Of a stretch of DNA of 64,000 nucleotides, positions 11,658 to 34,460 are shown piece after piece. The DNA is from a bacterium. Lineage in GTDB: Bacteria; Zhuqueibacterota; Zhuqueibacteria; Residuimicrobiales; Krinioviventaceae. The translations under genes and the position numbers were made by a program. The notes beneath the pieces are model-generated. The model searched no databases. It was not told where the DNA came from and saw only the letters and a list, made by a program, of their open reading frames with translations. Positions within the stretch are counted from its first letter, which is position 1. Each line of letters starts with the position of its first letter. The DNA lies in contig CAXXFV010000003.1 of the NCBI GenBank assembly GCA_963674595.2, forward strand, positions 32,001 through 96,000. The letters are read 5' to 3'.

Positions 11658-12718
11658 TCATTTTTTTTATTTAACGAAAATAATAGTAAAAAAACAATTA
11701 TTATTTAAATCAAATAACCAGGTATAAATAAAAAACGGACCAATGAGCGACAATGCACTATAATGAAGGCAGGGCCGGGTACTCCATATCCTTCGGTTAG
11801 TACGATGCGGTCAGAGGTCCGATAAAGTCTCAATCCCTCCATAGAAATCAAGTCTCTACTCATAATTTCCGATCTTAAAATGTCTCAATCTCAGCGGAGT
11901 GTAGCGACGTAAGGCCGCCTGCCATAGGGTATTGCTTTTGAAACATTGCAAAGTACCTCATAAAGAACAGCTCTTTTGAACCAGCCTCAAACGGCCCCTC
12001 CGTAGTAATTAGGTCTATTTCCACGGAGGATATGATTAATTTACTTAATCAAATAAATGGTTTTGTGTCTCAATCCCTCCGTGTTGATTAGGTCTATTTC
12101 CACAAAGCCGGACCGATGAGGCGCTTACTCGTGCCCAGAAGTCTGTCTCAATCCCTCCGTAATGATTAGGTCTATTTCCACAAAAGAATCAGGCAGTTTC
12201 TAAACGGTTTAAAGAAAGGTCTCAATCCCTCCGTAATGATTAGGTCTATCTCCACAGTGGTATAAATATTACTTTAGTAGCCCGATTTTTAGTCTCAATC
12301 CCTCCGTGGTGATTAGGTCTATTTCTACATTAATATTGATTTGAATGACAAACAGTACTGTTTTAAAGGTGTCTCAATCCCTCCGTGGTGATTAGGTCTA
12401 TTTCTACTCGAAGAAACAGACAAAAAGGCATTCGGTGAACAAACCAAGTCTCAATCCCTCCGTGTTGATTAGGTCTATTTCCACTATTGACGATTGCGAG
12501 TGGGTTTATTTTATCCATCGTGGCAATCCGTCTCAATCCCTCCGTGTTGATTAGGTCTATTTCCACGGATTGAAATGAAAATAATAGACAATCACGCTTG
12601 TGTCTCAATCCCTCCGTAATGATTAGGTCTATTTCCACAAATAAATATTAAGCTTGCTATATTTTAGTGGACACAAAGTTAAGCACTTTTTATATTATAA
12701 ACCAAAGGAGGTGTCCAC

Positions 12719-13015
12719 ATGACAAACAGAAGACGACGTTACACAAAAGAATTCAAAATAGAAGCTGTTCAGCTTGTACTTTCTAAAAGCAATGGTAATG
12801 CTTCAGAAGTTGCCAGAAATCTTGGTATTGAGCCTAACCTTCTCTCCAAGTGGGTTCGAGAATACAAAATTGATAAAGAACATTCCTTTCCAGGACTAGG
12901 GAACAGCAAAGAAAGTGATGAAATACAGAAACTGCGTAAAGAACTTGCAGACGTAAAACTGGAGCGGGATATATTAAAAAAAGCTGTGGCCATTTTCTCA
13001 AAACCGTCCCATTAA
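12719..13015 (+). CDS. IS3 transposase OrfA
   Basis: RRYTKEFKIEAV HTH; ERDILKKA end. Confidence 0.93.
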   Translation: MTNRRRRYTKEFKIEAVQLVLSKSNGNASEVARNLGIEPNLLSKWVREYKIDKEHSFPGLGNSKESDEIQKLRKELADVKLERDILKKAVAIFSKPSH

Positions 13016-13056
13016 AGTTTGGGTTTATCCAAAAGCATCAACAGGAATTCCCAATA

Positions 13057-13878
13057 GTGAAAATGTGCCAGGTTCTCAATGTCAGCCGGGGCGGGTTTTA
13101 TACCTGGAGCAAGCGACCAATGAGTCAACGAGAACTGGAAAACAAAAAGATACTTGAACGGATCAAACATATCCACAAGGAATCCAGAGGAAGCTATGGC
13201 AGTCCCAGAATAACACAAGAGTTACATAAGGAAAACTTGATTGTCAGCCGTCCGCGTGTTGCTCGTTTAATGAGAAAGAACAAAATTTGTGCAAAAACAA
13301 AACGTAAATTCAAAGTAACCACAAATAGTGATCACAGACTGCCAATATCACCAAATCTTTTACAACAGAATTTTACAGTCAATCAACCCAATAAAGTCTG
13401 GGTTTCTGATATTACATACATCCCGACTCGCAAAGGATGGTTGTACCTGACAGTGATCATTGATTTATACAATCGCCAGGTTGTCGGCTGGGCCATGAGT
13501 AACAACCTGCATGCTTCTTCAACAACAATCCCGGCCCTAAAACATGCATATCATCGTTTTCGTCCTTCAACAGATTTGATTTTTCATTCGGACCGTGGTG
13601 TTCAATATGCATGTAAAGAATTCAGAAAAATGTTAGCTCTTTTTCAAATGGTCCAAAGTATGTCCGGAAAAGGAAACTGCTACGACAACGCTGTTGCTGA
13701 AAGCTTTTTTGGTACTTTGAAAAAAGAACTGATTTATCATCATACTTATGAAACACGATTAATTGCGAAGCAATCAATATTTGAATATATTGAAATATTT
13801 TACAACCGAAAAAGAATTCATTCCTTTTTGGGCAATATGTCACCAGTACAATTCTTAAAATTTAATAAAGCAGCTTAA
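13057..13878 (+). CDS. IS3 transposase OrfB (DDE)
   Basis: WVSDITYI, HSDRGVQY, DNAVAESFF motifs. Confidence 0.95.
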   Translation: MKMCQVLNVSRGGFYTWSKRPMSQRELENKKILERIKHIHKESRGSYGSPRITQELHKENLIVSRPRVARLMRKNKICAKTKRKFKVTTNSDHRLPISPNLLQQNFTVNQPNKVWVSDITYIPTRKGWLYLTVIIDLYNRQVVGWAMSNNLHASSTTIPALKHAYHRFRPSTDLIFHSDRGVQYACKEFRKMLALFQMVQSMSGKGNCYDNAVAESFFGTLKKELIYHHTYETRLIAKQSIFEYIEIFYNRKRIHSFLGNMSPVQFLKFNKAA

Positions 13879-16800
13879 ACTTAACTAGGTGTCCATTTTT
13901 TTATTGCAATTTCATATTGCCATGCTCATAGAACATGCAGAAAGATAGTCTCAATCCCTCCGTAATGATTAGGTCTATTTCCACTTGAGTTTCATGATCA
14001 TGTGAAACGTAAAATCCCACTGTCTCAATCCCTCCGTAATGATTAGGTCTATTTCCACAAAGCTGAGCTTTGGTGATGCTGGTGGCATTGATGCAGTCTC
14101 AATCCCTCCGTAATGATTAGGTCTATTTCCACTAGAATAATTAGAATTGCGGTTTCACCCTTTTAAAATGTCTCAATCCCTCCGTAATGATTAGGTCTAT
14201 TTCCACGGGAATTGGATTAGAATTGTACCAAACTGAGTATTTTAGTCTCAATCCCTCCGTAATGATTAGGTCTATTTCCACTTCTTATGCCGGTGGAAAA
14301 GCAACAAAAATCACGGTTGAACAGTCTCAATCCCTCCGTAATGATTAGGTCTATTTCCACTCTTAATGGTGATGTTCGCACAAAATTGCACAAAATTGAA
14401 GTCTCAATCCCTCCGTAATGATTAGGTCTATTTCTACTCTCTTGTAACAGCACACAAAGAAATAAAATCAATTCTCACAAAGTCTCAATCCCTCCGTGGT
14501 GATTAGGTCTATTTCTACAAGAAATAAAAGAAAGTCGCGACGAATATCGCAAACTTTGTCTCAATCCCTCCGTGGTGATTAGGTCTATTTCTACATAGAC
14601 ATCTCAACATCAAAAGTGCAAGTAACTGCGTCTCAATCCCTCCGTGGTGATTAGGTCTATTTCTACTTGGAGCGGTAGCCTTGTGTTTTACAATGGCCGC
14701 TGGTCCAAAATGTCTCAATCCCTCCGTGGTGATTAGGTCTATTTCTACACCTCATAAAAATAGAGCTATTGACTCTACCATTACCAGTCTCAATCCCTCC
14801 GTGGTGATTAGGTCTATTTCTACATTTACTGCCGTGCAGTTTTCCTTCTTTTAAATCACTCAAAGTCTCAATCCCTCCGTGGTGATTAGGTCTATTTCTA
14901 CAACACCTTACCTCTAATATCATGTCTTGAAAGAAATTCCAGTCTCAATCCCTCCGTGGTGATTAGGTCTATTTCTACCTTAACTGTGAAAGAGTTGGCA
15001 CTAAGGATTCTAACTGTGAAAGAGTTGGCAAGAATGTCTCAATCCCTCCGTGGTGATTAGGTCTATTTCTACAAAAGTGGCGTGACGATTGGTATTTAAA
15101 CCTTAATAACGACGTCTCAATCCCTCCGTGGTGATTAGGTCTATTTCTACCGCACCGGAAATTTTGTATAAAATAGCTGCTATTCCGCAGTCTCAATCCC
15201 TCCGTGGTGATTAGGTCTATTTCTACCATTCGTACTGATTGCTGAAAAGTTATTTGGTTGGTCTGGGTCTCAATCCCTCCGTGGTGATTAGGTCTATTTC
15301 TACTCTTTTTATTGGCTATCGTTGCGTTGAATGGTTGCTGTCTCAATCCCTCCGTGGTGATTAGGTCTATTTCTACGTATTTAATACACGTCAATACAAA
15401 TACGGCGTTGATGACCGTAAAAAGTCTCAATCCCTCCGTGGTGATTAGGTCTATTTCTACCACAATCATAAATGTTTTGGAGCACAGAAAGAAATAAGTA
15501 TTGTCTCAATCCCTCCGTGGTGATTAGGTCTATTTCTACACCTTCAAGACCATCAAGCTTGGCACCCTGAAGGACGTTGCCGGTCTCAATCCCTCCGTGG
15601 TGATTAGGTCTATTTCTACACGATTGAAGTACTAACACTGTCATTGGTCCCAATACCGTCTCAATCCCTCCGTGGTGATTAGGTCTATTTCTACAAGATA
15701 AATTTTTTGATTCACTAAAATCAAGTAGCGTATGTCTCAATCCCTCCGTGGTGATTAGGTCTATTTCTACAAATTCAATATTAACTTGGGAATTAAGTTC
15801 TCAAAAGAAGTCTCAATCCCTCCGTGGTGATTAGGTCTATTTCTACTTTTTAATAAAATTGGAATTAGGTTGTGACAATTGGATGTCTCAATCCCTCCGT
15901 GGTGATTAGGTCTATTTCTACAAAACCAGATGGAACATCATATTACGCAATCAATTCTGATGTCTCAATCCCTCCGTGGTGATTAGGTCTATTTCTACCT
16001 AACGACGAAGCGCTAAGTGTTATCTTCCGGGAAGGATTGAGTCTCAATCCCTCCGTGGTGATTAGGTCTATTTCTACATGGCTTGATGCCAGGTTGTCCG
16101 TATGGGTTGACGAACAGATCGAAAAGTCTCAATCCCTCCGTGGTGATTAGGTCTATTTCTACCACATCGTCACTGTCCGTCTCAGCAGAATTGGCAATGT
16201 CTCAATCCCTCCGTGGTGATTAGGTCTATTTCTACGACTTTTGGTCAACACATGCGTTGATTAAAAGGAAAGTCTCAATCCCTCCGTGGTGATTAGGTCT
16301 ATTTCTACAGCTTTTCAGAAGTTTGGGATTTAGTTGCTCAAGTTAAAGTCTCAATCCCTCCGTGGTGATTAGGTCTATTTCTACAGGTATAATAAAGGGG
16401 AAGAGAAAGAACAAAAATTTGTCTCAATCCCTCCGTGGTGATTAGGTCTATTTCTACTGCCGATCTTGTTGATGCATTCAAGGCCAGAATGAAAGAGCGG
16501 TCTCAATCCCTCCGTGGTGATTAGGTCTATTTACCACTACTTAATATGAACAGCAAACTCTGGAAACAATCGCCAAAAAAAGTCTCAATCCCTCCGTGGT
16601 GATTAGGTCTATTTCTACTTAAAGCTTTGCCGGACCGTATTCGGTATGCAATGCTGTCTCAATCCCTCCGTGGTGATTAGGTCTATTTCTACTCTTTCTC
16701 AGGATTAAAAGCGTCTCTTTTCGGAGATGAGTCTCAATCCATCCGTGGTGATTAGGTCTATTTCTACCCATTTGCAATAGTGAATTTTGAACAAGATATT

Positions 16801-18132
16801 AAGCGTCTCAATCCCTCCGTGGTGATTAGGTCTATTTCTACATATTCGTTAAATCAATAATGGCTTTACCGGCTTTAAAGGTCTCAATCCCTCCGTGGTG
16901 ATTAGGTCTATTTCTACGATGAGCTGGAGGAATTGTTTCAGGATTATCAGCTCTGGTCTCAATCCCTCCGTGGTGATTAGGTCTATTTCTACAGGAAGAG
17001 ATAAGAATGATCCAACAAGCTTACGGGGACCTTGTGTCTCAATCCCTCCGTGGTGATTAGGTCTATTTCTACTTTCTGGTAAAGTTGAGTTTGAAAGTTC
17101 AGAGAATACTGTCTCAATCCCTCCGTGGTGATTAGGTCTATTTCTACATCTTTAAATAACAGTGTAAAGATCTCGACCGGCGGTCTCAATCCCTCCGTGG
17201 TGATTAGGTCTATTTCTACGCTGAAAAAGTTGATCGTCAACTTAAGCACAGATGATGTCTCAATCCCTCCGTGGTGATTAGGTCTATTTCTACAAATAAT
17301 ACGTCTTCTCAGACCCAGCAGACCATAACGTCTCAATCCCTCCGTGGTGATTAGGTCTATTTCTACAAAAATTTACGACTGTTCCCTGGTTGTAAAAAGA
17401 CGTCTCAATCCCTCCGTGGTGATTAGGTCTATTTCTACAAGGATGTACGAATACACCCAACTCAGAAACCTGTTGCGTCTCAATCCCTCCGTGGTGATTA
17501 GGTCTATTTCTACAAATTAAAGAAGCTCAGAACCAAATTCTGAATACTTTGTCTCAATCCCTCCGTGGTGATTAGGTCTATTTCTACGAACATTTACTAA
17601 AAGACCTTAATGAAGCCGGAAAGATAAAGATGTCTCAATCCCTCCGTGGTGATTAGGTCTATTTCTACATTGCGGGTCCAGCAAGAACTCGTCTTCTAAC
17701 AAAACCTTGTTGTAAGTCTCAATCCCTCCGTGGTGATTAGGTCTATTTCTACTGGAATGGTATGGTACAGGTGCTTGGAGTAAGGTAAATGTCTCAATCC
17801 CTCCGTGGTGATTAGGTCTATTTCTACTGGAAATAATATCGCCGAGGTATCCCGCAGACTACAAATAAGTCTCAATCCCTCCGTGGTGATTAGGTCTATT
17901 TCTACTCCAAAAAGAGATTCCCTCTTTCAAAAATTTCTTTGTCGTCTCAATCCCTCCGTGGTGATTAGGTCTATTTCTACATAATATATTGTGCTTCTGT
18001 CTTTTAGTGCTTATGGTGATGTCTCAATCCCTCCGTGGTGATTAGGTCTATTTCTACACATGCTACACAGATTTGGAACAGACATGCTCAGAACCGTCTC
18101 AATCCCTCCGTGGTGATTAGGTCTATTTCTAC

Positions 18133-18341
18133 TGCCAGCTTTGCAACTCATTTATATTTAGATAGATACAAGGGTGATTACCGTTACCCCTTATTTTGGG
18201 CCACTTTTTGTGCATTTTTTCCCTTTTCTGGTTTAATTTTCTGTGCATTATTTAAATAATAATTAATTACTTACATTAAAGTCCGTTACCCCCTGTCAAA
18301 AAGTGCCGTATTTTTCTGGCATTTCGTTTGCATACACATTT
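18133..18341 (-). promoter_or_regulatory. CRISPR leader 1
   Basis: AT-rich region between cas2 and the first repeat; GGGGTAACGG motif occurs twice; conserved in leader 2. Confidence 0.8.
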
Positions 18342-18623
18342 TTACGCAATGTAAATGTCTTTATCTTCCGTTATTTCCCCCTGACCCCATATTTTAATTT
18401 TGCTTTTACAGGTTTCACATATCGTATAGAGTCTGATGCTGTCGTTATCGTCCAGTTTAATTTTTGATAGCATGGTATCCATTTTTTCCAGTTCTTCCCT
18501 GGTAATATCTGCTTCAAATACTGAGTACTGAACGCGTGGCCCAAAATCTTTTAATTTTTTATGTAGCCGTGTGCGTTTTTTGTCTTTTTCTATATCGTAT
18601 GTAACAATTACCAACATAATCAA
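18342..18623 (-). CDS. cas2: CRISPR-associated endonuclease Cas2
   Basis: VTYDI..DKKRT, RVQYSVFE, DSIRLY motifs. Confidence 0.96.
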   Translation of the reverse strand: MIMLVIVTYDIEKDKKRTRLHKKLKDFGPRVQYSVFEADITREELEKMDTMLSKIKLDDNDSIRLYTICETCKSKIKIWGQGEITEDKDIYIA

Positions 18624-18738
18624 TACCCGGCAGGCCGGAGTTCCTGCCTTTTTATGCCAAAGAACTGTTGTATCTTTACATGGTGTTTTTCATTATTTAT
18701 ATTATTTCTTTTTTTTGATCTGCTCTTCTATTATTAAA

Positions 18739-18767
18739 ATTGTAACAACATTTTTTGTATTTGTCAA
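18739..18767 (-). promoter_or_regulatory. Sigma70-like promoter for cas2/array 1
   Basis: TTGACA-17 nt-TACAAT; retained in the inverted copy at 32720-32748. Confidence 0.65.
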
Positions 18768-18768
18768 G

Positions 18769-19800
18769 TTAAAGTTTTAGAGGGGTATACATTGCATCAT
18801 GTTGGACTGTTTTGGCAAGTGCGGCAACCTGTGTTTGAAATTTTTTTCGGAATCCTGATTTTTCCGGGTGCATTGTATCGCTGTCAAATTGTCCAAGCAT
18901 TTGTTCGAATTGTTTGAAAAATACTTTCTTACCAGAAATGGATAAATAAACACCTCCGGTGGGTGGTTTATAAAAATCCTCTTCAGAAAGGGCATTGGTA
19001 TTAAAAAGATTTAATGCCAACCTGTCTATAAATCAATGACGGAATTCTTCCACAAGGTCTAAAGCCAAACTTGGTCGTCCATATTTTATTTGATGATAAA
19101 AGCCAAGATATGGATCAAATCCGATTCCATCCAGTAATGATTGCAACTCTGAAGATACAATAACATAGCCATAGGAGAGAACAGCATTTACCGGATCTTG
19201 TGGTGGTCTTTTTGTTCTGGCGTCAAAGTTCCACGGCGGTTTTATCATTTTGCTGAATAATTTAAAATAAAAAGCGCTGCCGCTACCCTCATATCCTCTC
19301 AGTTCATCCAAGTCTTTGGCATTTTCTGCTTTTGTTTTATAGTCTGAAAATTTTTGAACTTGCTGTGTGGTAAACAAACCCGGATGGTTTGCTAAATGTT
19401 TTTTTATGTTAATATATGCGCTGTTTAGTTTGGACGATACGATTTGTTTTGAAAAAGTGAGGCAAAAATCTGTTTGATGGAATTTTTCAAATTGAGCGAT
19501 TCTCAGTTCAATGTTCTTTTGTTTTGGAGGTGTTAATTGTCCTAATAATGTTCCTGTTAAGGTAAAAAAAGCAAGCTCAATGTTGTGGGTCAACAATTGA
19601 TGAATAGCCGGAGTTGTCACTTCAATATTCCCAAAAATCATGACCTGGTCTATATCAGCACACGGAAGATCCAGTTTTATATCATCCTGAGTGAGATGAG
19701 TTGTGGTGGTCTTTTTTGTTGACGGTTTTTTACATATAAGCAGCCGATCACCACTTTTTCGAAGTATCGTGTTTTGTTCAACAAGGTAAAGTGTAGCCAT
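18769..19800 (-). pseudogene. cas1: Cas1 with one in-frame TGA at 19033-19035
   Basis: LRGYEG, RPPQDPVNAVLSYGY, SLALDLVEEFRH*FIDRLALNLFN; the two ORFs are in the same frame. Confidence 0.9.
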
Positions 19801-20765
19801 TACAACTCCTGTTTATTTTTCAATTCCAGGTATTTTTTTAATGTCAATGGCGGCGGCAGTTTTACCGCATGTGCTCTGTTGCGTTTTTGGGGTTGAGGCA
19901 AATAAACGTCGTCAAATAAAAATATGGCACCCAGAAATTTAAATCCTTCATCAAAAGAGACGATTTTTGTTTTTAACGGATTCAGGTCAAGCTGTAAATC
20001 TTCCAGCAGCATATCTGTCAGTTCGACATTTTCAACAGCTTCTTTTTCAGTCTTTGACAGGATCAAAAAATCATCTGCATAACGTACCAGTTTGCGGTCA
20101 AAGCTTATCAAAATTTCATCCAGTTCATCCAGATACAGATTAGCCAAAATCGGGGAAACTACCGATCCCTGTGGAATGCCTTTTTCCAGCGTCCAAATTT
20201 TTTCACCATCGTAAACGTCTGCTTTAATCCATTTTATAAACAGGTCCGTCACTTTTTTTTCAAGAATGAGTTTGTGTAGTTTTTTAATGAGCTGGTTATG
20301 GGGAACATTGTCAAAATAAGCGTCAATGTCAGCGTCTACAGCATATCGAAAACCAAGGTCGCGCCAGTATTTAATATCCTTAATGGCGGTCTGCACGCTT
20401 CTATTAGGGCGATAGGCGTGAGAAATGGTTTCAAATTCTTTTTCAAAGATATCGCGCGTAGCTAAATAAACCGCAGCCTGGGCAATTCTATCCCGTACAG
20501 AGGGAACTGACAAATAGCGAAAGCTGTTGGAACTTTTCTTTGCAATGGCAAACCGCAATAGCGGGTAGGGGTGATATGTTTGTTGTTTCAAGTCGGTTTG
20601 CAGGGATTGCAGGTTTGTTTCACAACGATATTCAAATCGATTAATTGTTACGCCGTCACTGCCCCTACAGCCTTTGTTTTCACGGACACGGGTAAAGGCA
20701 AGGGAAAGAGCGTTAGAGGAGTGGATCACGTTAAATATCTCATTATTCATTGATAATCGTTCCAA
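19800..20765 (-). CDS. CRISPR-associated group II intron-like reverse transcriptase
   Basis: GIPQGSVVSPILANLYL and RYADD motifs; no maturase X domain seen; stop overlaps the cas1 start (TAATG). Confidence 0.93.
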   Translation of the reverse strand: MERLSMNNEIFNVIHSSNALSLAFTRVRENKGCRGSDGVTINRFEYRCETNLQSLQTDLKQQTYHPYPLLRFAIAKKSSNSFRYLSVPSVRDRIAQAAVYLATRDIFEKEFETISHAYRPNRSVQTAIKDIKYWRDLGFRYAVDADIDAYFDNVPHNQLIKKLHKLILEKKVTDLFIKWIKADVYDGEKIWTLEKGIPQGSVVSPILANLYLDELDEILISFDRKLVRYADDFLILSKTEKEAVENVELTDMLLEDLQLDLNPLKTKIVSFDEGFKFLGAIFLFDDVYLPQPQKRNRAHAVKLPPPLTLKKYLELKNKQEL

Positions 20766-20767
20766 CT

Positions 20768-21694
20768 TTATGTTATATCTAAATTATTTTCCTTGATGAA
20801 TTCTTTAGCTTCAGTACAAAGTTGATCCGCAGAAACATACATAATTTTTTGGTCCTTATTGCGAAATCCATTATAAAGAACATCTGGAATTGGCAATGTA
20901 TCTTTGCGGATCATATAAATTTTTGTTTGGATATCTCTACTAATACCTTCGAGATTTATAGTGTCTATTTTCTGTTCAAGGGCATCATCCCAAGTTTTGC
21001 GTAAATGAACTTTTAAAAATTCTTGATCATTTGCAGCATTGCGTTGAGAAAAAAACTGAATTATTCCCCAAATATATGCTGGAACAACCGGCACTAACCA
21101 GGAAAACACAAAAGACGGAACATCTGTTTTTAATAATGAAGCAATAATGAAAATGCCTATACCTAATATTATAAGCCCCCAAAGTAGAATACTAGCGAAG
21201 CGACGACGAAGACTGCTATCCCAAAAGAGATTTGCTCTTTGACATATAAGCCGGGAATAAGCTAATGACAAACAATCTGTATTTTCAAAGTACCAATTCA
21301 ATAACTTTTCTTTGTTTTGAGGTTTTCTCAAATGCTTGTTTGCTTTCGCGATATAATCTTCACTTTCAGGTTTGGCCTGGCAAACAACATCATTCCACTT
21401 GAGCTGTAACACACGTGTATCAAACAGTTCTTGAATTTTAGCAGCTCTATTTCTAAAACTGTTTTCTTTTTTTAATATAATTACCTCAAAAAGCGTTATA
21501 ATTACACCCCATATTGACGCAAATGTTTCCAATGGACTAATAACTTTTCCTAATATAAATACAAGTATAGTAAGAGGCACAACAAGAACAAACAAATACC
21601 ACTGAATCATTTTACCCTCAGAGTATAATTGCCGTTGAGCAGCTAACAAAATAATATTTTTCTCTTCGTTTTGTGCTTCAAAAATTGTTTTCAT
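20768..21694 (-). CDS. S-4TM (SMODS-associated 4TM) pore-forming effector
   Basis: IFEAQNE..LLAAQRQLYS, AAKIQELFD..V..L.WN, NWY, CQRANLFWDSSLRR motifs; two TM pairs. Confidence 0.8.
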   Translation of the reverse strand: MKTIFEAQNEEKNIILLAAQRQLYSEGKMIQWYLFVLVVPLTILVFILGKVISPLETFASIWGVIITLFEVIILKKENSFRNRAAKIQELFDTRVLQLKWNDVVCQAKPESEDYIAKANKHLRKPQNKEKLLNWYFENTDCLSLAYSRLICQRANLFWDSSLRRRFASILLWGLIILGIGIFIIASLLKTDVPSFVFSWLVPVVPAYIWGIIQFFSQRNAANDQEFLKVHLRKTWDDALEQKIDTINLEGISRDIQTKIYMIRKDTLPIPDVLYNGFRNKDQKIMYVSADQLCTEAKEFIKENNLDIT

Positions 21695-21716: not shown

Positions 21717-23360
21717 TTAGATTGCTTGTTCATATGTGCGGCTATTTATTGTTGAAAAGCTATTTGATTTTTCTCTGTAAACTTGAAAATGTAATGCTTT
21801 TCTAATATTTTCATTAAAAAGTTTTAAAGCAATTTCTTTTCCTTGTTCGTCATCAATAAATAATATATCATTAGATTGGTTATATTCTTGTAACATCTCA
21901 TTATTCATTACTCGTTTCAAGTCTTTTTCTTTAATCGTAGGTAAGAATGAGGCAGGAACGCACTCCGCCAGACTTAAAGCTTTTGTTATATCCTTGTTAT
22001 ACTCTCTATTGTTAACAGAATTGGGTAAAAGTTTTTTCAAACTTTGACTTGTATAGATAGTCTCTTTTTGTAATTTCCTAAACTCTGAAATTACATCGCC
22101 ATTGATTTCTTCTTCCTCCATCGCATGCAGAACATCCTCCGTTATTTTATGCCCGGAAGCAAACAATGGATATGTAAATAAGTGTTTCAGGTCAGAGTCA
22201 TACCATAAAATTTTTGAAATAGAGTTTAAACTTGGATAGTGCAATAAATCACTAAATGTATTTGGGTGTTTATGTAATACTAGGTTATATATTTCATCTA
22301 TATTGATTGAATATTGTGCTGGTGGTGCAGTATCAAATGGATCACTGTTTTTTATTACAATAGTGTTTATGGAAAACTCAATGGAACCATAGCCGTAAGA
22401 CTTGCCATTTCCAATTTTATGACGAAGCCTTTTACCCGGAATGAGTGAAAATACGAAAAAATCCAATATACTCTTGGGGATATCTGAAAAGTAAATTCGG
22501 AAAGGAAGACTTTGTGCCCCTGCTTTTAAGCACTCTATACTGTAAAAATAAAGTGGCCGTTCCAAATCTTTCGGCCAATTATTAGAATTGCCATACCAAC
22601 TTGTGCATTTTTTATGATCTTGATGAAAATAGAATTTTCTCCCCCGATAACCTGAACCAATAAATTTAGGTAGCCAATCCTTTTGAATTTTATATGCTTT
22701 TTGATACCACCAGCTTGAAGCACTTGGATGAGCCCCTCCCATGAATGCGGAATTATTGATATCCGGCAACAGGTAAGAATCATTATTGAATTCAATGTTA
22801 TTGGATGCGATATTAGCATCCTCAATAGCAATTCGTCCTCTAAAAGTACTACCATTCGTCCCAGATATAGCCCCAAATAAAAAAGATGCAATATCAAATC
22901 TTTCTATTTTCTCAGGAAAAGTTATTTTCTCAGGTAATGAATATGGAATGCTACTATCAACACTGACAATATCATTATTGAGTTTTAATTCTTTTATTGA
23001 ATTAACTACTTGGAATCCTATTGCATGCTTTTTCTTCTCCTTTTTGTAATAAGGACTTACCTGTGAAACCCACCCATTTGTTATGGCTTCAATAAACGAT
23101 CTTAATAAGCCTGAAATTGAAGTGCCTGGTATTTGATTTAAACCATTATTTTTATAAAAATAGCTTTTTTCTATTTTTTCCCCTTTTGAATTAACTTTTT
23201 GATGGCCACAAATATGTACAGGGGACAATGCTTGAATTTGAACATCCATATAACCAGTTAAAAGGTTATCATCGTAATCAAGCCATTCATCCATTGTTTT
23301 AAGTATAGGATCTTCATCAGCAAAAGGAACAAAATCAAATGGATTCATGTTATGTGCCAT
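21717..23360 (-). CDS. Cas7-group RAMP with insertion (TIGR03986-like)
   Basis: NPFDFVP, IPGTSISGLLRS, RGRKFYFHQ, IGNGKSYGYGS. Confidence 0.85.
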   Translation of the reverse strand: MAHNMNPFDFVPFADEDPILKTMDEWLDYDDNLLTGYMDVQIQALSPVHICGHQKVNSKGEKIEKSYFYKNNGLNQIPGTSISGLLRSFIEAITNGWVSQVSPYYKKEKKKHAIGFQVVNSIKELKLNNDIVSVDSSIPYSLPEKITFPEKIERFDIASFLFGAISGTNGSTFRGRIAIEDANIASNNIEFNNDSYLLPDINNSAFMGGAHPSASSWWYQKAYKIQKDWLPKFIGSGYRGRKFYFHQDHKKCTSWYGNSNNWPKDLERPLYFYSIECLKAGAQSLPFRIYFSDIPKSILDFFVFSLIPGKRLRHKIGNGKSYGYGSIEFSINTIVIKNSDPFDTAPPAQYSINIDEIYNLVLHKHPNTFSDLLHYPSLNSISKILWYDSDLKHLFTYPLFASGHKITEDVLHAMEEEEINGDVISEFRKLQKETIYTSQSLKKLLPNSVNNREYNKDITKALSLAECVPASFLPTIKEKDLKRVMNNEMLQEYNQSNDILFIDDEQGKEIALKLFNENIRKALHFQVYREKSNSFSTINSRTYEQAI

Positions 23361-25313: not shown

Positions 25314-27143
25314 TTATTTCTCCTGTTCTGCATTAAATCTTTTTGTCCAGTGCCAATTAAGATTTATAGAAATTTCCCCATAACCATTTTCGGCTACAAA
25401 GGGGCATACTTTCCAGCTATCACCATCTGAGATACCAAGATTTTCTACTTCAGAAGCAATGTCTATTGGCAGAGGAAGTCCATCAATTTTTAGCCGTGAT
25501 AGCTGAGTATTTGCCAGATCATTATCATATGCTTTTAGTACAAAGACACTACCGGCTTCCGTTAACACCCAAGGATAATATCTATTATTATGCAATTGTT
25601 TATACTGATGTCCAAAATATCCACCTACCATCTTTTGTCGTGCAAAAAAATTGACAAGATACATATTTCCATTAGTCGCTTCACTCCAATATTTGTTATA
25701 TAGTTCGCGGAGATTTTCGAGATTCGATTGTTTAAACGCATGAAACAGCAATGCATCACTTTGAAGTACAACGACTGCATGATCATCAATTATTGTCTCG
25801 GAACGTTCTTTAATAGCAGAGGTTGCCAATCCTTGATTTATTTTAAAATCAAAACGTGAATCCCTCTTGCCAAGATATTTCCAAGCCTGCTGTATTGCGT
25901 CAAATAGTTCAGAGGCAGTCTCTCTAGTATTATTTTTGGGAAAAATAATATTTGAAATCCATATGATCCTTTTTTTGTTTGCTTTAGTTCCAGAGTAATT
26001 ACAATAAGGCGAGATATATTGGAAGGTGTATAATTGATTTTCAGATGCTGTCCTTGATTTTATATCGATGCTAGTTCTTGTTTTATTAATAGTAATACAA
26101 TCTTCCCAACCAAATTCTTTTTCAATATACTCAGATCCCTTCCAATCGATTCTAAAGGTAGGTGCCTTTTTTGTCGTGTGATCCAGGGCAAATTTATTGA
26201 CATGAGCAACATCTTTGTATTCTTTGTTATCGCTGTAAACAGTTGACATTGGAATAAACACCGGCCGTTTTGTCTCATCACCAGAAGGAAAAGCATTAGT
26301 AAAACGAATTTTGGAAAAATTTGTTGCTAGATTGGGAAATTGGCTATAAACATTCTTGTTTTCATTATTTATATCTTCATTCAATTCCGCACCACAGAGG
26401 TCATTTATAGCACGGGCAACAGAACCTTTTAATACCGATCCTGAGATTATTTTTACTGATTCTCGATAATTAGATGAATTTACCTTTCCCCCAACAAACA
26501 AATCATCTATCATTCGAATTGTTAAATGATATTCTCGTGTTGTGTTTGTTATTGCTATTTCTGTTTTTTGTTTGTTTGGATTCAATTGTACATCAATTTT
26601 TGTTAATCGTCCAAAACCACATCCTTTCATGCTTCCAAAACCGCCTATCCACTTTAATCCTACCTTCAAAGATTCAGCAATAGATGATGCTTCTTTATCA
26701 TTTTCTGCCCAAAACTGAATGCAACCTTTCCAGGCAGAAGTAGATCCAGAAACAAACAAATTTTCATTTATTTGGAGAAATTTATCTCTAGCTGTTCCAG
26801 TCTTTCTATCTATAGAATTTCTTGTTGACGGCTTTAACTTTTGGATGTTAGTTTCCATTAAATCAAAATCACTAAAAAATAATTTGCCCTTTCCTGTGTC
26901 AAAAGCTTCTTGCATTTTTTTTCCAAACCATCCATCTATTGTGAAGTTATTTAAATTCACTAATTTTTCTAAATCATGAAACGAATCTCGTAATTTTCCT
27001 TTTACATGAGAACCTTTTAATGCTATTAAACCATCAGATTTACGATAAAAGATACTATCAAGACCCATAGTATTGGTCGTACCCTTACTTAAAATTGGAC
27101 CTTTTAGATATAAAATTATATTAAACGAAAAAAACTTTCTCAT
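25314..27143 (-). CDS. Cas7-Cas5 fused RAMP (Csx10-like)
   Basis: N-terminal GSHVKGKLR..GGFGSMKGCGFG; C-terminal ISGSVLKG, AGSVF, ENGYGE. Confidence 0.8.
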   Translation of the reverse strand: MRKFFSFNIILYLKGPILSKGTTNTMGLDSIFYRKSDGLIALKGSHVKGKLRDSFHDLEKLVNLNNFTIDGWFGKKMQEAFDTGKGKLFFSDFDLMETNIQKLKPSTRNSIDRKTGTARDKFLQINENLFVSGSTSAWKGCIQFWAENDKEASSIAESLKVGLKWIGGFGSMKGCGFGRLTKIDVQLNPNKQKTEIAITNTTREYHLTIRMIDDLFVGGKVNSSNYRESVKIISGSVLKGSVARAINDLCGAELNEDINNENKNVYSQFPNLATNFSKIRFTNAFPSGDETKRPVFIPMSTVYSDNKEYKDVAHVNKFALDHTTKKAPTFRIDWKGSEYIEKEFGWEDCITINKTRTSIDIKSRTASENQLYTFQYISPYCNYSGTKANKKRIIWISNIIFPKNNTRETASELFDAIQQAWKYLGKRDSRFDFKINQGLATSAIKERSETIIDDHAVVVLQSDALLFHAFKQSNLENLRELYNKYWSEATNGNMYLVNFFARQKMVGGYFGHQYKQLHNNRYYPWVLTEAGSVFVLKAYDNDLANTQLSRLKIDGLPLPIDIASEVENLGISDGDSWKVCPFVAENGYGEISINLNWHWTKRFNAEQEK

Positions 27144-28615
27144 AATATCCCTCCAGAATAATCCAAAAGATTATAGGCCAGTAACCAACGATTGTAATTA
27201 TCAATAATTAATTGATCTATAGCATTTTTTAAAATTTCTTTAGTTTTTGCATTCATTCTCTTATATATGCTGTTGAGAATATCATCTATTTTTTCTGGTT
27301 GGCCATTTTTAATTGTATGGAGAATTGCGTACAATTTATTTCTCGGTAAATATTTGTCAATTACTTGCAAATTTGACATTAGCCCGCCAAAATTACCTGC
27401 TTCAATTACCATTGTTTCGGGTGGTATTGGTTTATAATAGTTATTCAAAAATTCTAATATATCACCGCTAATCATATCTATTGAAGTCATATTCAAGATT
27501 GCAATTTTATTAGAATGTTCATCAATTTGTTCAACATCTTGCGGTATATCAAATTTCGCAAGTTCGCATAATCTGTGCACATATTCCCGGACTTGGAGTA
27601 TTGGAAGGTTGTGGGGGCAAAATATTACTCCAGCTGTATGCGTTACGTGCAAATCATTGAAAAAGATTTTATTACTCATGCTGTTAAAAATACTTTGAAG
27701 TACATTAAATCCTTGCCAGGCTGGCACAATTAATTCCAACTCATCGCCTCCCCAAAGTAGTATCTCAGCTCTTATTTGATTTTTAGTACTAGTTTGTAAT
27801 AAAAATGATTTATTTTCAGGTTTTTGGGCAAATCTAACAACATTTTCTATAGCTGGAACACGTAAATCTTGTTGAATTTTGCTTTGGAATTCTTGATAAT
27901 CTTTTTCCGTATTGCAGACTTTATCTCGCAACTTCCCAAATCTATTGCCATCAATATATATAAATGCCATTTTACCATCAAGCCTACCAGCAGCAGCATC
28001 TTTAGTTAATGATTCCAAATCATTTGTGAAAGGATAATCAATATTTATTAAACTGGGATTAAGTAAATTAGGAGTATTTGATAATCGCAATATCAAATTT
28101 TTACGAAGTATTCTCCCGTTGTCTTGCCTTACCTTCACGGCCTGTGAACGTCTAATATCTTCGTTCCCCTTTTTAATAGGATCTACAAAGGGTCTTACTC
28201 CGTCGAATTCACAAAAGTTGTCTCTGTTTTTTTCCTCGGGTAGTTTGAAAGAAGGAGATTGATATTGTTGCCAACGGCATTCTGCCATTAACTCTTGTAG
28301 CTGTTCCTGAAAGAGTTTATCAGGCGATATTTTTTGCATAGAATGTACAATAGTAGCAAAAGGGATTTTGGATTCTACTTGAGCTAAAATATCATCACAA
28401 ACCTGCTTGGCTTCTTTTTCATTTGGCACCTCCATACGCAATAATGCAACACTTGCTGTTGATCCCAAATCTTTAATTTTAGCTTTTTTATGTGTGATTT
28501 CATAGAATGCATCATGCTGCATAAAACTACCACCACGTATAGTCGATATATCATATGTGTCATAAATGGTAAAATCAAGATTAACAGCTTCAATTCTTAA
28601 ATGATAACTCGCCAT
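27140..28615 (-). CDS. cas10: Compact Cas10, no HD domain, palm motif GGDE
   Basis: IRGGS, C..DG.RP, YIDGNRFG, WGGDE motifs. Confidence 0.85.
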   Translation of the reverse strand: MASYHLRIEAVNLDFTIYDTYDISTIRGGSFMQHDAFYEITHKKAKIKDLGSTASVALLRMEVPNEKEAKQVCDDILAQVESKIPFATIVHSMQKISPDKLFQEQLQELMAECRWQQYQSPSFKLPEEKNRDNFCEFDGVRPFVDPIKKGNEDIRRSQAVKVRQDNGRILRKNLILRLSNTPNLLNPSLINIDYPFTNDLESLTKDAAAGRLDGKMAFIYIDGNRFGKLRDKVCNTEKDYQEFQSKIQQDLRVPAIENVVRFAQKPENKSFLLQTSTKNQIRAEILLWGGDELELIVPAWQGFNVLQSIFNSMSNKIFFNDLHVTHTAGVIFCPHNLPILQVREYVHRLCELAKFDIPQDVEQIDEHSNKIAILNMTSIDMISGDILEFLNNYYKPIPPETMVIEAGNFGGLMSNLQVIDKYLPRNKLYAILHTIKNGQPEKIDDILNSIYKRMNAKTKEILKNAIDQLIIDNYNRWLLAYNLLDYSGGIL

Positions 28616-28653: not shown

Positions 28654-29622
28654 TTACGTTACTAGATTATATTCAATCAATATCTTTCCCAACCCAAAAC
28701 TCGTTCCCTTACCCACATGTAATACTTTTGCGGCATTGAGCAGTTCGCTAAAGGGTTTTAAATCACCTTCTAACGAAATATTACCAATAAAACCGCCGAT
28801 ATCCATTTTGGTATGTTGACGACTGCTAAAGCGGCGCCAGTCCTCCCAACGGAGATTTTTATCGACCACTTTTACGGCATTGGCAAGTTTTAAAAAATTA
28901 TAAAATTCCCAGTTTGGCTGTTCATCCGGGACATAAAAGTGCGTCAGTTCCAGATGACGGCGGAGTATTTTAAAAACCAGCATTCGAAAATTGAATTCCA
29001 TCGAATATTGGCTCTGAAATTTTATTCGGGTGGGCGTGAGGAACGACAAATTCATCTTTTCTGAAAAACCATTCTCCAGACCGGTTACAGAAAGATCAGC
29101 GTTTTCACACAAGTGTTGGTCAGTACCCCGGTATAATAACCGCTCTTCAAAATCGTGATCATGTTGTTTATACCAGTAGGCTTCTGAACATAAAAAAGGA
29201 CTTTTATGCACAGTAAATCCGCTTTCTGCCATGCGGCTGACGGCAAAAATGATATAGGGGTAATAGTCACAGGCGTTGCCAATCAGCGTCAACATAAAGT
29301 CCAGATTTTCACCCTTTTGTAGGTGTGTTTGTTGATGATTACAATCAATGATAAAAGGTTTCGGTGCTTCTTCAATGCCTTTTAAAAAGGGAGGAGGCTC
29401 ATCCTTAATATATACATCGAATATTTTGGTAAACACACATTGATTTTGCAGCATACATGTTTTACACGTATGTTTTGGCGGCATAACACAAACGGTTTTC
29501 CTTAAGGCGTGACCAAATGCACCACGAAGCATGGAGCCTTTGTTGTGCGGGAGATACGTATCCTGCAAAGCCGTTAATACAAAACGGATTTTCAGAAAAG
29601 GTATTTTGGGTAAATTATACAC
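28654..29622 (-). CDS. cas6: Cas6 pre-crRNA endoribonuclease
   Basis: GSMLRGAFG, Cys cluster, HVGKGTSFGLG G-rich loop. Confidence 0.93.
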   Translation of the reverse strand: MYNLPKIPFLKIRFVLTALQDTYLPHNKGSMLRGAFGHALRKTVCVMPPKHTCKTCMLQNQCVFTKIFDVYIKDEPPPFLKGIEEAPKPFIIDCNHQQTHLQKGENLDFMLTLIGNACDYYPYIIFAVSRMAESGFTVHKSPFLCSEAYWYKQHDHDFEERLLYRGTDQHLCENADLSVTGLENGFSEKMNLSFLTPTRIKFQSQYSMEFNFRMLVFKILRRHLELTHFYVPDEQPNWEFYNFLKLANAVKVVDKNLRWEDWRRFSSRQHTKMDIGGFIGNISLEGDLKPFSELLNAAKVLHVGKGTSFGLGKILIEYNLVT

Positions 29623-32719: not shown

Positions 32720-32748
32720 TTGACAAATACAAAAAATGTTGTTACAAT
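32720..32748 (+). promoter_or_regulatory. Sigma70-like promoter for the cas2 copy and array 2
   Basis: TTGACA-17 nt-TACAAT. Confidence 0.65.
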
Positions 32749-33353: not shown

Positions 33354-34460
33354 GTGGAAATAGACCTAATCATTACGGAGGGATTGAGACACTCAAAAAA
33401 TCAAGGTCAAGATGACAAGAATTATCAAAGTGGAAATAGACCTAATCATTACGGAGGGATTGAGACGATTTAAAAAATCATAAAAATCATTAAAAGGCTG
33501 TACTGAGTGGAAATAGACCTAATCATTACGGAGGGATTGAGACATGACCATCAAAATTGACAGACTTTAGAACTTCGTTCGCCGTGGAAATAGACCTAAT
33601 CATTACGGAGGGATTGAGACACAAAAATTATTTGCAAATAAAACTCTATTATTGTATGAGTGGAAATAGACCTAATCATTACGGAGGGATTGAGACTTTT
33701 CTGGATTATTGTTTGCTATGGCCAAATGAGAAGGTGGAAATAGACCTAATCATTACGGAGGGATTGAGACTAACAATCCATATGTAAATACGCTAGCCAG
33801 TTGTTTGATCGTGGAAATAGACCTAATCATTACGGAGGGATTGAGACGTCAACTGTAAAAGCCTGACAAAACACAACATCCACATCGTGGAAATAGACCT
33901 AATCATTACGGAGGGATTGAGACTCACTCGGCACCGGTTTAAACGGGGCAACGTCAGACCAGTGGAAATAGACCTAATCATTACGGAGGGATTGAGACCG
34001 TATTGTGTTATTACATTAGTGGGAAAGTTGGCTGAGTACTTGTGGAAATAGACCTAATCATTACGGAGGGATTGAGACTACTGATAAATTTAATGCGGCT
34101 AGTGCTAATATTTCTATGGCGTGGAAATAGACCTAATCATTACGGAGGGATTGAGACTTTTTAATATCACATTCTTTTTTATAAGCAAGTAAAAGATGTG
34201 GAAATAGACCTAATCATTACGGAGGGATTGAGACATAACGGTAATGATAATCAGAAGTAAAATTGAACAAAAAGTAGAAATAGACCTAATCACCACGGAG
34301 GGGCCGTTTGAGGCGTGTTCAGTAGAACAGTTCCTTATGTTTTGTTGCGAAATGTTTTAGAAAAAATCCCCGAAGGCAGGCGGCCTTGCGTCGCTACGCT
34401 CCGCTTAGATTGAGACAGTGAAAACATGAAAAGGCCTAATTACCACGGAACGATTGAGAC
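33354..34460 (+). CRISPR. CRISPR array 2 (GTGGAAATAGACCTAATCATTACGGAGGGATTGAGAC)
   Basis: 12 intact repeats, a split repeat at 34274-34416 and a degenerate repeat ending at 34460. Confidence 0.97.

Follow-up and report, generated by a model that had tools for sequence, protein, structure and literature searches.

A CBASS-type S-4TM protein in the usual slot of CorA points to a possible new type of cell-suicide switch under CRISPR control

The 64,000-nt stretch of bacterial DNA analysed here (the window) encodes an S-4TM protein, a membrane effector of CBASS type, within a type III CRISPR-Cas operon; the pairing of S-4TM with cas10 recurs in other genomes, the usual SMODS cyclase is missing, and the Cas10 of the operon combines an intact active site with acceptor residues of the SAM type. 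In all likelihood this S-4TM is a Cas10-dependent effector, and with a probability of about one half it would be the ancillary membrane effector of a III-D2-like system, gated by a Cas10-made signal and replacing CorA, with SAM-AMP as that signal. The ancillary effectors known to receive signals from type III CRISPR systems are increasing in number and, to our knowledge, CorA is the sole receptor described to date for the SAM-AMP branch. We found no published description of S-4TM as a type III CRISPR effector; supplementary tables of accessory-gene surveys might list S-4TM beside cas10.

Results

The S-4TM gene is an intact ORF whose ATG start is preceded, 6 nt on its 5' side, by an AGGAG read from the sequence. 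Its product covers positions 2-291 of the 291-position Pfam S_4TM profile (PF18159) with a score of 254 bits (cut-off 26.9), and nine PADLOC CBASS '4TM effector' models match it as well (Table 1), which bears out the family named in the original prediction. The four transmembrane helices paired as two hairpins that characterize S_4TM are found both in the hydropathy profile, with four hydrophobic segments whose peaks begin at residues 34, 55, 169 and 194, and in the AF2 model, which is all-helical (pLDDT 95, pTM 0.91) and has long helices at these four peaks. Known sensor domains (CARF, SAVED, REC) were not found in the protein by domain search, nor did literature and PDB searches return a solved structure or a ligand for the family. 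Foldseek found no fold relative of the AF2 model in the PDB (the best hits were transmembrane domains of ABC exporters, E 0.31, TM <=0.26), and a profile search found no sequence relative there (best E 0.16). It is worth noting that the conserved cytoplasmic residues of the family are identical in SMODS-linked and cas-linked proteins, so that the comparison gives no sign of a ligand pocket adjusted from one setting to the other. Q88, D92, W134 and R263 of the window protein are invariant.

The gene sits where the prediction had placed it, in one cas operon, 22 nt from the last RAMP gene on one side and 2 nt from the reverse transcriptase (RT) gene on the other. The surrounding locus 1 contains the components of a type III CRISPR-Cas system, namely a Cas10 palm, Cas5 and Cas7 RAMPs, cas6 and an array; the last RAMP has a match in the Cas7 at the C-terminus of Cas7-11 and, alone among the three separate Cas7 ORFs, a weak one (1.6e-4) in that of 9wxh_D. 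Searches of ten locus-1 ORFs gave no match to SMODS, CARF or SAVED, again as predicted, and the CARF_RelE protein encoded in the window at 61921-62760 is part of a second type III-D locus (locus 2) at a distance of 30 kb. Locus 1 bears signs of decay in the form of an in-frame TGA in cas1, an insertion sequence within array 1 whose transposase ORFs carry HTH_Tnp_1 and rve, and an IS21 element adjoining cas6; a frameshift in cas1 was ruled out, the break being the in-frame TGA. No Rfam family reached its gathering score in 10-36 kb of the window, and promoter and terminator scans were no better than shuffles (58 vs 49.1 +/- 6.4 and 7 vs 7.1, respectively). On the minus strand this terminator scan, overall not above shuffles, placed no terminator-like site between the RAMP, S-4TM and RT genes.

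Table 1. Features of locus 1 and its arrays, in window coordinates
Feature	Coordinates	Strand	Evidence and remarks
CRISPR array 1	11996..18132	-	63 well-matched 37-nt repeats and one degenerate terminal repeat; interrupted by an insertion sequence at ~12639-13947
cas2	18342..18623	-	CRISPR_Cas2 3.3e-23
cas1	18769..19800	-	Cas_Cas1 2.4e-69 (first 255 aa); in-frame TGA at 19033-19035, C-terminal piece in the same frame
Reverse transcriptase (adaptation module)	19800..20765	-	RVT_1 3.9e-36; group II intron RT-like 6.4e-79, below the model cut-off
S-4TM membrane effector, 308 aa	20768..21694	-	Pfam S_4TM 2.5e-75; PADLOC CBASS '4TM effector' 2.6e-75
Last RAMP: Cas7 with insertion, TIGR03986-like, 547 aa	21717..23360	-	TIGR03986 9.1e-36
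Cas7-like RAMP, 347 aa	23363..24406	-	RAMPs 2.2e-10
Cas7 (Csx7/Csm3-like RAMP), 297 aa	24418..25311	-	RAMPs 8.1e-20; TIGR02581 4e-19
Cas7-Cas5 fusion (Cas7-5-like), 609 aa	25314..27143	-	9wxh_C, E 1.7e-71 over residues 7-596; two RAMP stretches
cas10, 491 aa, without HD domain, GGDE palm, type III-D2-like	27140..28615	-	PDB 9wxh_B; PADLOC Cas10/Cas10d
cas6	28654..29622	-	Pfam CRISPR_Cas6 6.9e-19; TIGR01877 1e-10
CRISPR array 2	33354..34310	+	Repeat of array 1 in 12 copies, with one more that is degenerate; array-1 leader region also present as a copy

The genome to which the window belongs (6.6 Mb, 97.6% complete) encodes one S_4TM protein and, at this completeness, gave no SMODS match; SAVED was not matched either, with a control that likewise matched nowhere. 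The combination of a CD-NTase/SMODS cyclase with an effector, by which CBASS is defined, is thus not found, the cyclase being missing genome-wide, and the usual S_4TM context of a neighbouring SMODS is missing at the locus and in the genome, which leaves membership in the family by sequence unaffected. CorA was not found in locus 1, and elsewhere in the genome the CorA model gave a weak match (1.3e-6) to its transmembrane end on another contig, this model also matching 8 of 14 control genomes. A search for NrN-type DHH_CorA found none in this genome (G000) or in three related cases described below (G163, G140 and G167), while the positive control G220 was matched at 6e-49.

A set of 160 loci chosen for S-4TM in other genomes and metagenomes (80 species genomes and 80 metagenome contigs, among the matches listed) was used to ask what accompanies the gene, with a SMODS HMM built from the neighbour cluster, three members of which were verified by Pfam/PADLOC. 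As the prediction had held, S-4TM usually partners SMODS: the HMM matched in 138 of the loci, and within 300 bp in 133. Type III cas10 or RAMP genes flank S-4TM in 11 loci, and in only one of these (L002) is SMODS also present. Searches starting from Cas10 are unbiased as to the effector, and among 167 genomes of the same phylum they gave four other strong matches; the two loci whose 3' end is visible (L176 in G163 and L177 in G140, both of the same class as the window) each have S-4TM 19-33 nt past the last RAMP. The concern that the association might be a one-off is answered by these 10 cyclase-free loci of 160 together with the two of two determinable Cas10-first loci. Among 401 genomes of Acidobacteriota, the same approach gave three matches: S-4TM lies immediately upstream of cas10 in G167, and a PADLOC CorA holds this place in G220 and G310 (3.8e-46 and 4e-42), G220 also carrying DHH_CorA. 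Altogether, 13 other cas-linked S-4TM loci were collected from at least four phyla, in three gene orders. A genome-wide search for SMODS in five genomes with cas-linked S-4TM returned none in four (G000, G167, G168 and G170) and one in G169. In a tree of 87 S-4TM proteins the cas-linked members fall in several places, and well-supported branches force at least 2+1 changes of context.

The nearest solved structure to the window Cas10 is 9wxh_B (E 5.6e-27 alone, 6.3e-104 as a six-sequence profile), which belongs to a III-D2 complex described in PMC13294483 as a SAM-AMP/SAM-AMP2 synthase. The palm is intact, with the GGDE motif and the DGNxFG metal/phosphate loop; D222, D291 and E292 align with D286, D347 and E348 of the III-D2 enzyme. 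In the profile alignment to 9wxh_B, E9, N12, L13, S30, S55 and Q117 stand at the positions of E8, N11, L12, S29, S123 and Q186, given in the same source as the SAM-contacting residues of the III-D2 acceptor site. This catalytic and SAM-contact pattern is shared by all group-D Cas10s compared, eight of eight linked to S-4TM and two of two linked to CorA, and in the CARF-linked Cas10 of locus 2, aligned at 17% identity, the columns of E8 and Q186 hold D and K. At the position of D307, whose replacement by alanine abolished synthesis in the III-D2 enzyme (PMC13294483), the window Cas10 has Gln, as do those of L176 and L177, and the CorA-linked L182 has Ser. Judged by its sequence, the window Cas10 is a member of the SAM-AMP-making III-D2 lineage.

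A separate III-B clade shows a comparable linkage, S-4TM being directly upstream of Cmr2 in L022, L046, L049 and L131. The Cmr2 proteins of L046, L022 and L049 have Asp70 and Glu166, as opposed to Asn and Lys in all 29 unlinked cyanobacterial Cmr2s, in a survey that covered 1.5 kb on each side and in which unlinked refers to S-4TM and not to CorA; the same Asp70 and Glu166 residues occur in the Cmr2 of L131 in a separate four-sequence alignment. The Asp70 column probably corresponds to N300 of P. furiosus. As far as can be judged from the alignments, the Asp70/Glu166 pair parallels D70/E151, the residue pair that marks the SAM-AMP synthase of B. fragilis (PMC10600005). A search with group-B Cas10s brought up none of the B. 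fragilis entries 9lq5-8 at E <=0.01, and the link to B. fragilis thus rests on the position of the motif and on the contrast with the 29 relatives.

Discussion

The systems that most resemble the window operon are the SAM-AMP CorA systems, of III-B type in B. fragilis (PMC10600005) and of III-D2 type in Gammaproteobacteria HyVt-522 (PMC13294483), which likewise have a membrane effector in the cas operon, a Cas10 without HD domain and a non-basic acceptor pocket. The window Cas10 and Cas7-5 fusion are homologous to chains B and C of the III-D2 complex 9wxh, and in the Acidobacteriota sister loci S-4TM and CorA occupy the same position, upstream of cas10. Nevertheless the two effectors are unrelated in sequence, S-4TM having no fold match in the PDB, and the NrN off-switch of the SAM-AMP systems was not found with the window system in the DHH_CorA search whose G220 control was positive. 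According to PMC13294483, the III-D2 system further differs in having a Cas7x3 fusion where the window has three separate Cas7 ORFs (297, 347 and 547 aa), in a Cas7-5 insert bearing W351, required for SAM-AMP2 and missing from the window Cas7-5, and in a CorA effector accompanied by a VapBC-like toxin-antitoxin module, where the window locus is without CorA. From the side of CBASS, type I operons combining a SMODS/CD-NTase with 4TM, such as EcCdnD12-4TM (bioRxiv 10.1101/2023.05.21.541620), appear to use the same effector family by Pfam/PADLOC with its conserved residues kept, the '4TM' of that preprint being likened to S_4TM by name; these operons have a cyclase, whereas the window locus and genome have none. 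Since the upstream enzyme would be an RNA-guided Cas10 complex, activation of S-4TM would be sequence-specific, unlike that of CBASS. In PMC11229360, Cam1, Cam2, Cam3 and Csx23 are, like S-4TM, small helical membrane proteins of type III loci and are thought to be signal-triggered depolarisers, but they sense through CARF, REC or a Csx23-specific soluble domain, which S-4TM lacks, coming instead from the pool of CBASS effectors; the main text of that survey mentions neither S-4TM, 4TM nor SMODS.

A genuine S-4TM, the usual pairing of this family with SMODS, an intact Cas10 palm and the recurrent cyclase-free pairing with cas10 make a Cas10-made signal acting on S-4TM the best reading. In such a system, the crRNA-guided complex of Cas10, the Cas7-Cas5 fusion and three Cas7 proteins would bind a foreign transcript, and target binding would activate the GGDE palm of Cas10 to make a small nucleotide signal. 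This signal may dock on the cytoplasmic side of S-4TM, where the N-terminal helix, an 89-aa middle region and a 93-aa C-terminal region make up a conserved helical face, whereupon the two transmembrane hairpins would permeabilise or depolarise the inner membrane and the infected cell would be arrested or killed. S-4TM would have been acquired from SMODS/CBASS operons to fill the functional slot held by CorA in sister loci, and RT-cas1-cas2 downstream would serve as the adaptation module. The gating of S-4TM by a Cas10 product, the identity of that product and the permeabilisation of the membrane are what we infer from these comparisons. The placement of the Cas10 in the III-D2 SAM-AMP lineage and of S-4TM at the place of CorA changes the likely signal with respect to the original prediction: the proposed ligand would most likely be SAM-AMP rather than a cyclic oligoadenylate.

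An unlikely alternative, which nonetheless deserves attention, is that the same architecture runs on a cyclic oligoadenylate (cA3, cA4), with S-4TM a moonlighting CBASS effector in the manner of NucC and TIR-SAVED. These two are a precedent for exchange of effectors between CBASS and type III systems and respond to cyclic oligonucleotides (PMC11229360); they are also soluble enzymes whose sensing, of cA3 or through SAVED, is known, whereas S-4TM is a membrane protein beside a SAM-AMP-synthase-like Cas10. A cyclic signal would sit well with the defensive type I CBASS operon EcCdnD12-4TM (its '4TM', as noted, likened to S_4TM by name), with the sameness of conserved residues in cas-linked and CBASS-linked proteins, and with the accessory genes of cyclic oligoadenylate type in two S-4TM/cas10 loci, namely Csx15 (3.9e-43) and Csx23 (2.5e-27) between S-4TM and cas6 in L077 and a CARF_2M ORF in L002. 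It is opposed by the acceptor sites of both S-4TM-linked Cas10 lineages, which bear the non-basic signature of SAM-AMP synthases, by the Asn/Lys pair kept in the unlinked cyanobacterial Cmr2s, and by CorA and DHH_CorA in the group-D sister loci. The CorA of these loci also speaks against the improbable idea that S-4TM works without any diffusible signal, be it by anchoring the effector complex to the membrane, as a partner of that complex or as a toxin restrained by a cas protein, given that S-4TM exchanges positions with CorA, a signal-gated effector; the partnership with a nucleotide cyclase in most S-4TM loci likewise argues that the protein is nucleotide-gated, and the Cas10 palm is kept in all eight linked group-D loci. 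What this idea has in its favour is that S-4TM has neither CARF, SAVED nor REC and no fold relative in the PDB.

We consider it more improbable still that S-4TM is a passenger, the orphan half of a CBASS pair in a defence island and functionally unconnected to CRISPR. Simple juxtaposition does happen, as the adjoining SMODS, S-4TM and cas10 of L002 indicate, and six SMODS and S-4TM pairs located inside type I R-M operons show that such pairs enter other defence operons. The tight operonic gaps, the 13 further loci with their spread of phyla and gene orders, the lack of SMODS in four of five linked genomes tested and the full-length, conserved S-4TM ORFs are all at odds with a passenger. The original prediction had offered either a Cas10 signal or an RT product as the opener of the pore; the first part stands as the best reading, and the second, control of S-4TM by the RT or by its cDNA product, now seems scarcely credible. 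An RT follows S-4TM immediately in the window, L082 and L119, and PADLOC includes RT-associated SLATT effectors of DRT systems, which gave weak cross-hits. However, only 4 of the 13 other fetched loci have an RT match, adjacent to S-4TM in L082 and L119 and elsewhere in L131 and L177; the neighbours of S-4TM in L077, L157, L176, L042, L002, L158, L022, L046 and L049 are cas10, RAMP, cas6 or unrelated ORFs, and cas1 and cas2 come after the window RT, an order also seen in RT-assisted adaptation modules.

If the recurrent cyclase-free pairing of S-4TM with SAM-type Cas10 holds true, type III immunity would gain a new effector family, and the gating of membrane proteins by SAM-AMP, or by whichever signal this Cas10 makes, could be approached through a second, unrelated handle. 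The S-4TM family would in turn gain a tractable trigger, since an RNA-programmable Cas10 can be switched at will, and the nucleotide used by S-4TM-type CBASS operons would become directly testable. It is tempting, though doubtful, to go further and regard S-4TM as a second family of SAM-AMP receptors and pores unrelated to CorA, recruited several times from CBASS into just those Cas10 lineages, the III-D2-like one and a III-B clade, whose acceptor pocket would now take SAM in place of ATP. Should this be so, the partner SMODS cyclases may signal with a SAM-AMP-like non-cyclic nucleotide, which would extend SAM-AMP signalling from CRISPR to CBASS. As to the relatives of the window S-4TM, the nearest are P0003 (56% identity) and P0004 (49%), and the closest protein of the metagenome scan, among the matches listed, has 41% identity.

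A CBASS-type membrane protein in a type III CRISPR operon

[quoted passage not shown] Pfam S_4TM matches the protein over profile positions 2-291 of 291 (E 2.5e-75, 254 bits), as do nine PADLOC CBASS "4TM effector" models (top E 2.6e-75), and AGGAG stands 6 bases 5' of the ATG. Hydropathy reveals four hydrophobic segments (first residues 34, 55, 169 and 194) arranged as two hairpins with loops of few residues; the N-terminal 29 residues, the 89 residues of the middle region (17 of them Lys or Arg) and the C-terminal 93 residues lie on one face, which is probably cytoplasmic judging from its charge. The AlphaFold2 model (65 sequences) is all helix (pLDDT 95, pTM 0.91), and fold and sequence searches of the PDB found no solved relative.

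As had been noticed, locus-1 proteins match neither SMODS, CARF nor SAVED, and the whole genome (6.6 Mb, 97.6% complete) contains one S_4TM and no SMODS. It seems reasonable to argue, with a probability of about 0.8, that S-4TM is an ancillary effector of type III CRISPR. The protein would take the slot of CorA, a known type III membrane effector, in an unfused III-D2-like system, as a predicted effector and putative pore. NucC and TIR-SAVED are described as effectors common to CBASS and type III (PMC11229360), and Cam1-3, Csx23 and CorA are precedents for a membrane effector in this role. In the literature that we searched, no paper links S-4TM with CRISPR, although supplementary tables may contain listings. 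Neither the type III effector survey (PMC11229360) nor the 2025 classification (PMC12669027) mentions "4TM" in its main text, and the former does not mention "SMODS" there either.

Features of the window
Feature	Position	Strand	Remarks
Secreted protein	3-3524		LDL-receptor class B repeats, T9SS C-terminal sorting domain
6.3-kb segment, copy 1	4221-10491
CRISPR array 1	12067-18132		63 well-matched 37-nt repeats, spacers 35-57 nt
IS in array 1	12639-13947		between two repeats
HTH_Tnp_1 ORF of IS	12719-13015
rve integrase ORF of IS	13057-13878
Leader region, array 1	17869-18789
cas2	18342-18623	-
cas1	18769-19800	-	in-frame TGA at 19033-19035
RT	19800-20765	-	group-II-intron-like
S-4TM	20768-21694	-	308 codons, ATG start, open frame
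Cas7-type RAMP	21717-23360	-	last of three, TIGR03986-like with insertion
Cas7-type RAMP	23363-24406	-	separate gene
Cas7-type RAMP	24418-25311	-	separate gene
Cas7-Cas5 fusion	25314-27143	-	609 aa
cas10	27140-28615	-	491 aa, without HD domain
cas6	28654-29622	-
IS21 (istA/istB)	29904-32211		directly upstream of cas6, between it and array 2
Leader region, array 2	32698-33620
CRISPR array 2	33354-34310		inverted, repeat identical to array 1's
Secreted protein	35316-37253		as 3-3524
Hsp70/actin-fold ATPase region	39924-42912	-	826-aa ATPase
6.3-kb segment, copy 2	45779-52058
Type III-D locus 2	53071-62760	+	complete-looking; own Cas10d, Cas7, Csx10, Csx19, CARF_RelE protein
Cold-shock-RAMP fusion	59622-61817		731 aa, N-terminal cold-shock domain
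CARF_RelE-type protein	61921-62760		positions 1-275 of 359-position model

Recurrence of the association

We sampled 80 species-genome and 80 metagenome S-4TM loci by pattern-based scans, which yield samples rather than totals, and searched them with a SMODS HMM built from a neighbour cluster and checked with Pfam/PADLOC. The expected pairing with SMODS cyclases was borne out in 138 of the 160 loci, at 300 bp or less in 133 and nearly always immediately upstream. Type III cas10/RAMP genes adjoin S-4TM in 11 loci, only one of which (L002) also has SMODS. S-4TM follows the last RAMP in L077, L157, L082 and L119, as in the window, stands immediately 5' of cas10 in L002, L042 and four III-B loci (L022, L046, L049, L131), and is divergent from cas10 in L158. 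Twelve loci have neither SMODS nor cas genes, including six whose context cannot be judged, S-4TM lying about 510 bp or less from the contig start. The S-4TM frames of L024 and L074 escaped our ORF caller, so that neither locus entered the first neighbour clustering; both count in the HMM survey, where L074 has a SMODS match and L024 is among the twelve.

The SMODS cyclase of L002, a locus with features at 8433-9311 and 19405-20016, lies 690 bp upstream of S-4TM. In L042 (Pyrinomonadaceae) the S-4TM/cas10 operon is preceded, at a distance of about 600 bp, by an ORF of SAM-dependent methyltransferase fold (8584-9384). In six other loci (L013, L015, L016, L018, L021, L039) S-4TM is part of a type I restriction-modification operon arranged hsdM, hsdS, SMODS, S-4TM, hsdR, with a SMODS match in all six.

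A search starting from Cas10 used a profile of six Cas10s of the window's III-D2-like lineage (group D) against 167 genomes of its phylum. Strong matches (E 1e-122 or lower) came from four genomes beside the window's own, all of its class. Downstream on the contig, S-4TM follows the last RAMP in G163 (L176; gap 33 nt) and G140 (L177; 19 nt), with E values of 3.3e-102 and 3.5e-81 for our S-4TM HMM and 9.6e-78 and 2.6e-66 for PADLOC 4TM, respectively; the contigs of G153 and G060 stop within the RAMP genes. Between cas6 and cas10 of G060 lies a 171-aa ORF (L175, 7794-8309) matching a CBASS "2TM effector" (5.5e-9) and weakly SLATT_5, and thus a second CBASS-type membrane effector may serve this Cas10 lineage. 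Among 401 sampled genomes of Acidobacteriota, three have this Cas10: G167 (= L042) with S-4TM immediately 5' of cas10, and G220 and G310 with a CorA-like protein directly upstream of it (E 3.8e-46 and 4e-42), G220 also carrying the CorA-associated DHH hydrolase. SMODS was absent genome-wide from G167, G168 (L077) and G170 (L046), and in G169 (L002) occurs only as the copy adjacent to S-4TM. Since one Cas10 lineage carries S-4TM in some loci and CorA in sister loci, S-4TM is a regular component of group D that alternates with CorA. The two surveys rule out a one-off association, and the observation holds, recurs and is sharper than originally proposed.

Among 87 S-4TMs placed in a maximum-likelihood tree by a quick method (branch support from SH-aLRT alone, rooted at the midpoint for display), the window protein clusters with its closest relatives P0003 and P0004 and with L082, L119 and L177 (support 99); L077, L157 and L176 lie near one another, and L002 and L042 separately. 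The four III-B-linked proteins form one clade (support 100) within cyanobacterial SMODS-linked sequences. At least two changes of context for group D and one for the III-B Cmr2 lineage (group B) already follow from the well-supported branches, and five and one from parsimony on the full tree, the exact placement of several cas-linked S-4TMs being uncertain on their long branches.

Which signal activates S-4TM

The palm motifs of the window Cas10 are intact: six homologues show no change in the metal/phosphate loop D222-G-N-x-F-G or in GGDE (D291, E292). In the PDB this Cas10 has a single relative, chain B of 9wxh (E 5.6e-27 for the sequence by itself, 6.3e-104 for a profile), and chain C is matched by the Cas7-Cas5 fusion (E 1.7e-71). 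This gammaproteobacterial type III-D2 complex is reported to make SAM-AMP and SAM-AMP2 and to act via CorA, the typical III-D2 partners being CorA and a TA module (PMC13294483). In the profile alignment (PDB numbering = paper numbering + 20), SAM contacts E8, N11, L12, S29, S123 and Q186 correspond to E9, N12, L13, S30, S55 and Q117 of the window Cas10, and catalytic D286, D347 and E348 to D222, D291 and E292. E8 and Q186 stand where a type III-A enzyme making cyclic oligoadenylate has Asp and Lys, and the E8A/Q186A mutant loses SAM-AMP synthesis (PMC13294483). We aligned 13 Cas10s, namely eight linked to S-4TM, two to CorA, one to 2TM, that of G153 and that of locus 2. The E8, N11, S123 and Q186 columns are constant in all S-4TM-, CorA- and 2TM-linked enzymes, with Ile at L12 in L077 and L157 and Gly at S29 in L002 and L176; G153, whose contig ends within the RAMP genes, has Asp at the E8 position, and the CARF-partnered Cas10d of locus 2, aligned at only 17% identity, carries Asp and Lys in the columns of E8 and Q186. 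The partner Cas10 of S-4TM bears the SAM-AMP-synthase signature. As Cas7-5 W351 is required for SAM-AMP2 (PMC13294483) and the insert carrying it is absent from the window protein, the complex would produce SAM-AMP alone if the analogy with III-D2 holds.

The four group-B Cmr2s downstream of S-4TM retain GGDD and have Asp70 and Glu166, whereas all Cmr2s of 29 other cyanobacterial genomes (from a 401-genome sample with 49 matching genomes), none with S-4TM within 1.5 kb, have Asn and Lys; at two further positions linked enzymes have Leu or Glu and unlinked ones Arg (28/29 and 26/29). Judging from motif and numbering rather than superposition, we infer that Asp70 and Glu166 are the positions of Chi et al. 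(PMC10600005), in whose work D70N/E151R abolished SAM-AMP synthesis and raised pppApA synthesis. Although the linked Cmr2s form one clade and so count as one evolutionary event, group B appears to be a second Cas10 lineage in which S-4TM linkage coincides with loss of basic ATP-acceptor residues.

Several observations speak against SAM-AMP. Cas-linked S-4TMs keep nearly all residues that are conserved in their SMODS-linked counterparts (Y24, Q88, F91, D92, W134, Y135, Q152, N155, W158, D159, R163, Q256, R263), the sole recurrent difference noticed being at window position 282, where the window clade and all four III-B-linked proteins have Gln instead of Glu. The paper's D307 column is Gln in the window, L176 and L177 Cas10s and Ser in one CorA-linked enzyme, and DHH_CorA was not found in four S-4TM genomes by a search whose positive control worked. 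A cyclic oligoadenylate signal would suit L077, in which the 4 kb after S-4TM hold Csx15 (3.9e-43), Csx23 (2.5e-27) and cas6 (13056-14816), Csx23 being described as a cA4-binding membrane effector (PMC11229360) and Csx15 as a ring nuclease (PMC13148439), and L002, whose cas operon closes, after the RAMP genes, with a CARF_2M ORF (one TAG within the match). We therefore give SAM-AMP as the ligand an even chance and consider cyclic oligoadenylate rather unlikely. An RT product, also proposed as trigger, finds little favour: among 13 other cas-linked loci, RT matches occur in the fetched DNA of four (L082, L119, L131, L177) and directly after S-4TM in two, some contigs being short and a more distant RT possible. 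Elsewhere S-4TM neighbours are cas10, RAMP, cas6 or unrelated ORFs. In the window, cas1 and cas2 come after the RT, which is best taken for a component of the adaptation module.

Other features of the window

The cas1 TGA falls in a conserved stretch, both pieces sharing a frame and jointly spanning the Cas1 profile, and may reflect a nonsense mutation, an error in sequencing or read-through. The leader regions of the two arrays are copies (88% identity). In locus 2, the CARF_RelE-type protein is followed by an ORF of 128 aa whose STIV B116-like match is weak. The 6.3-kb copies (93% identity) encode SSB, a Mgm101/Rad52-like annealase, an HTH protein and several ORFs without family, and look like a mobile or prophage-derived module on either side of the CRISPR region. 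The Hsp70/actin-fold ATPase, whose long C-terminal half is unmatched, lies beside a TerB-domain protein and two family-less ORFs and may belong to a further defence or stress module. Finally, the two secreted proteins are paralogues (80-86% DNA identity) whose sorting domains point to a T9SS in the host lineage.
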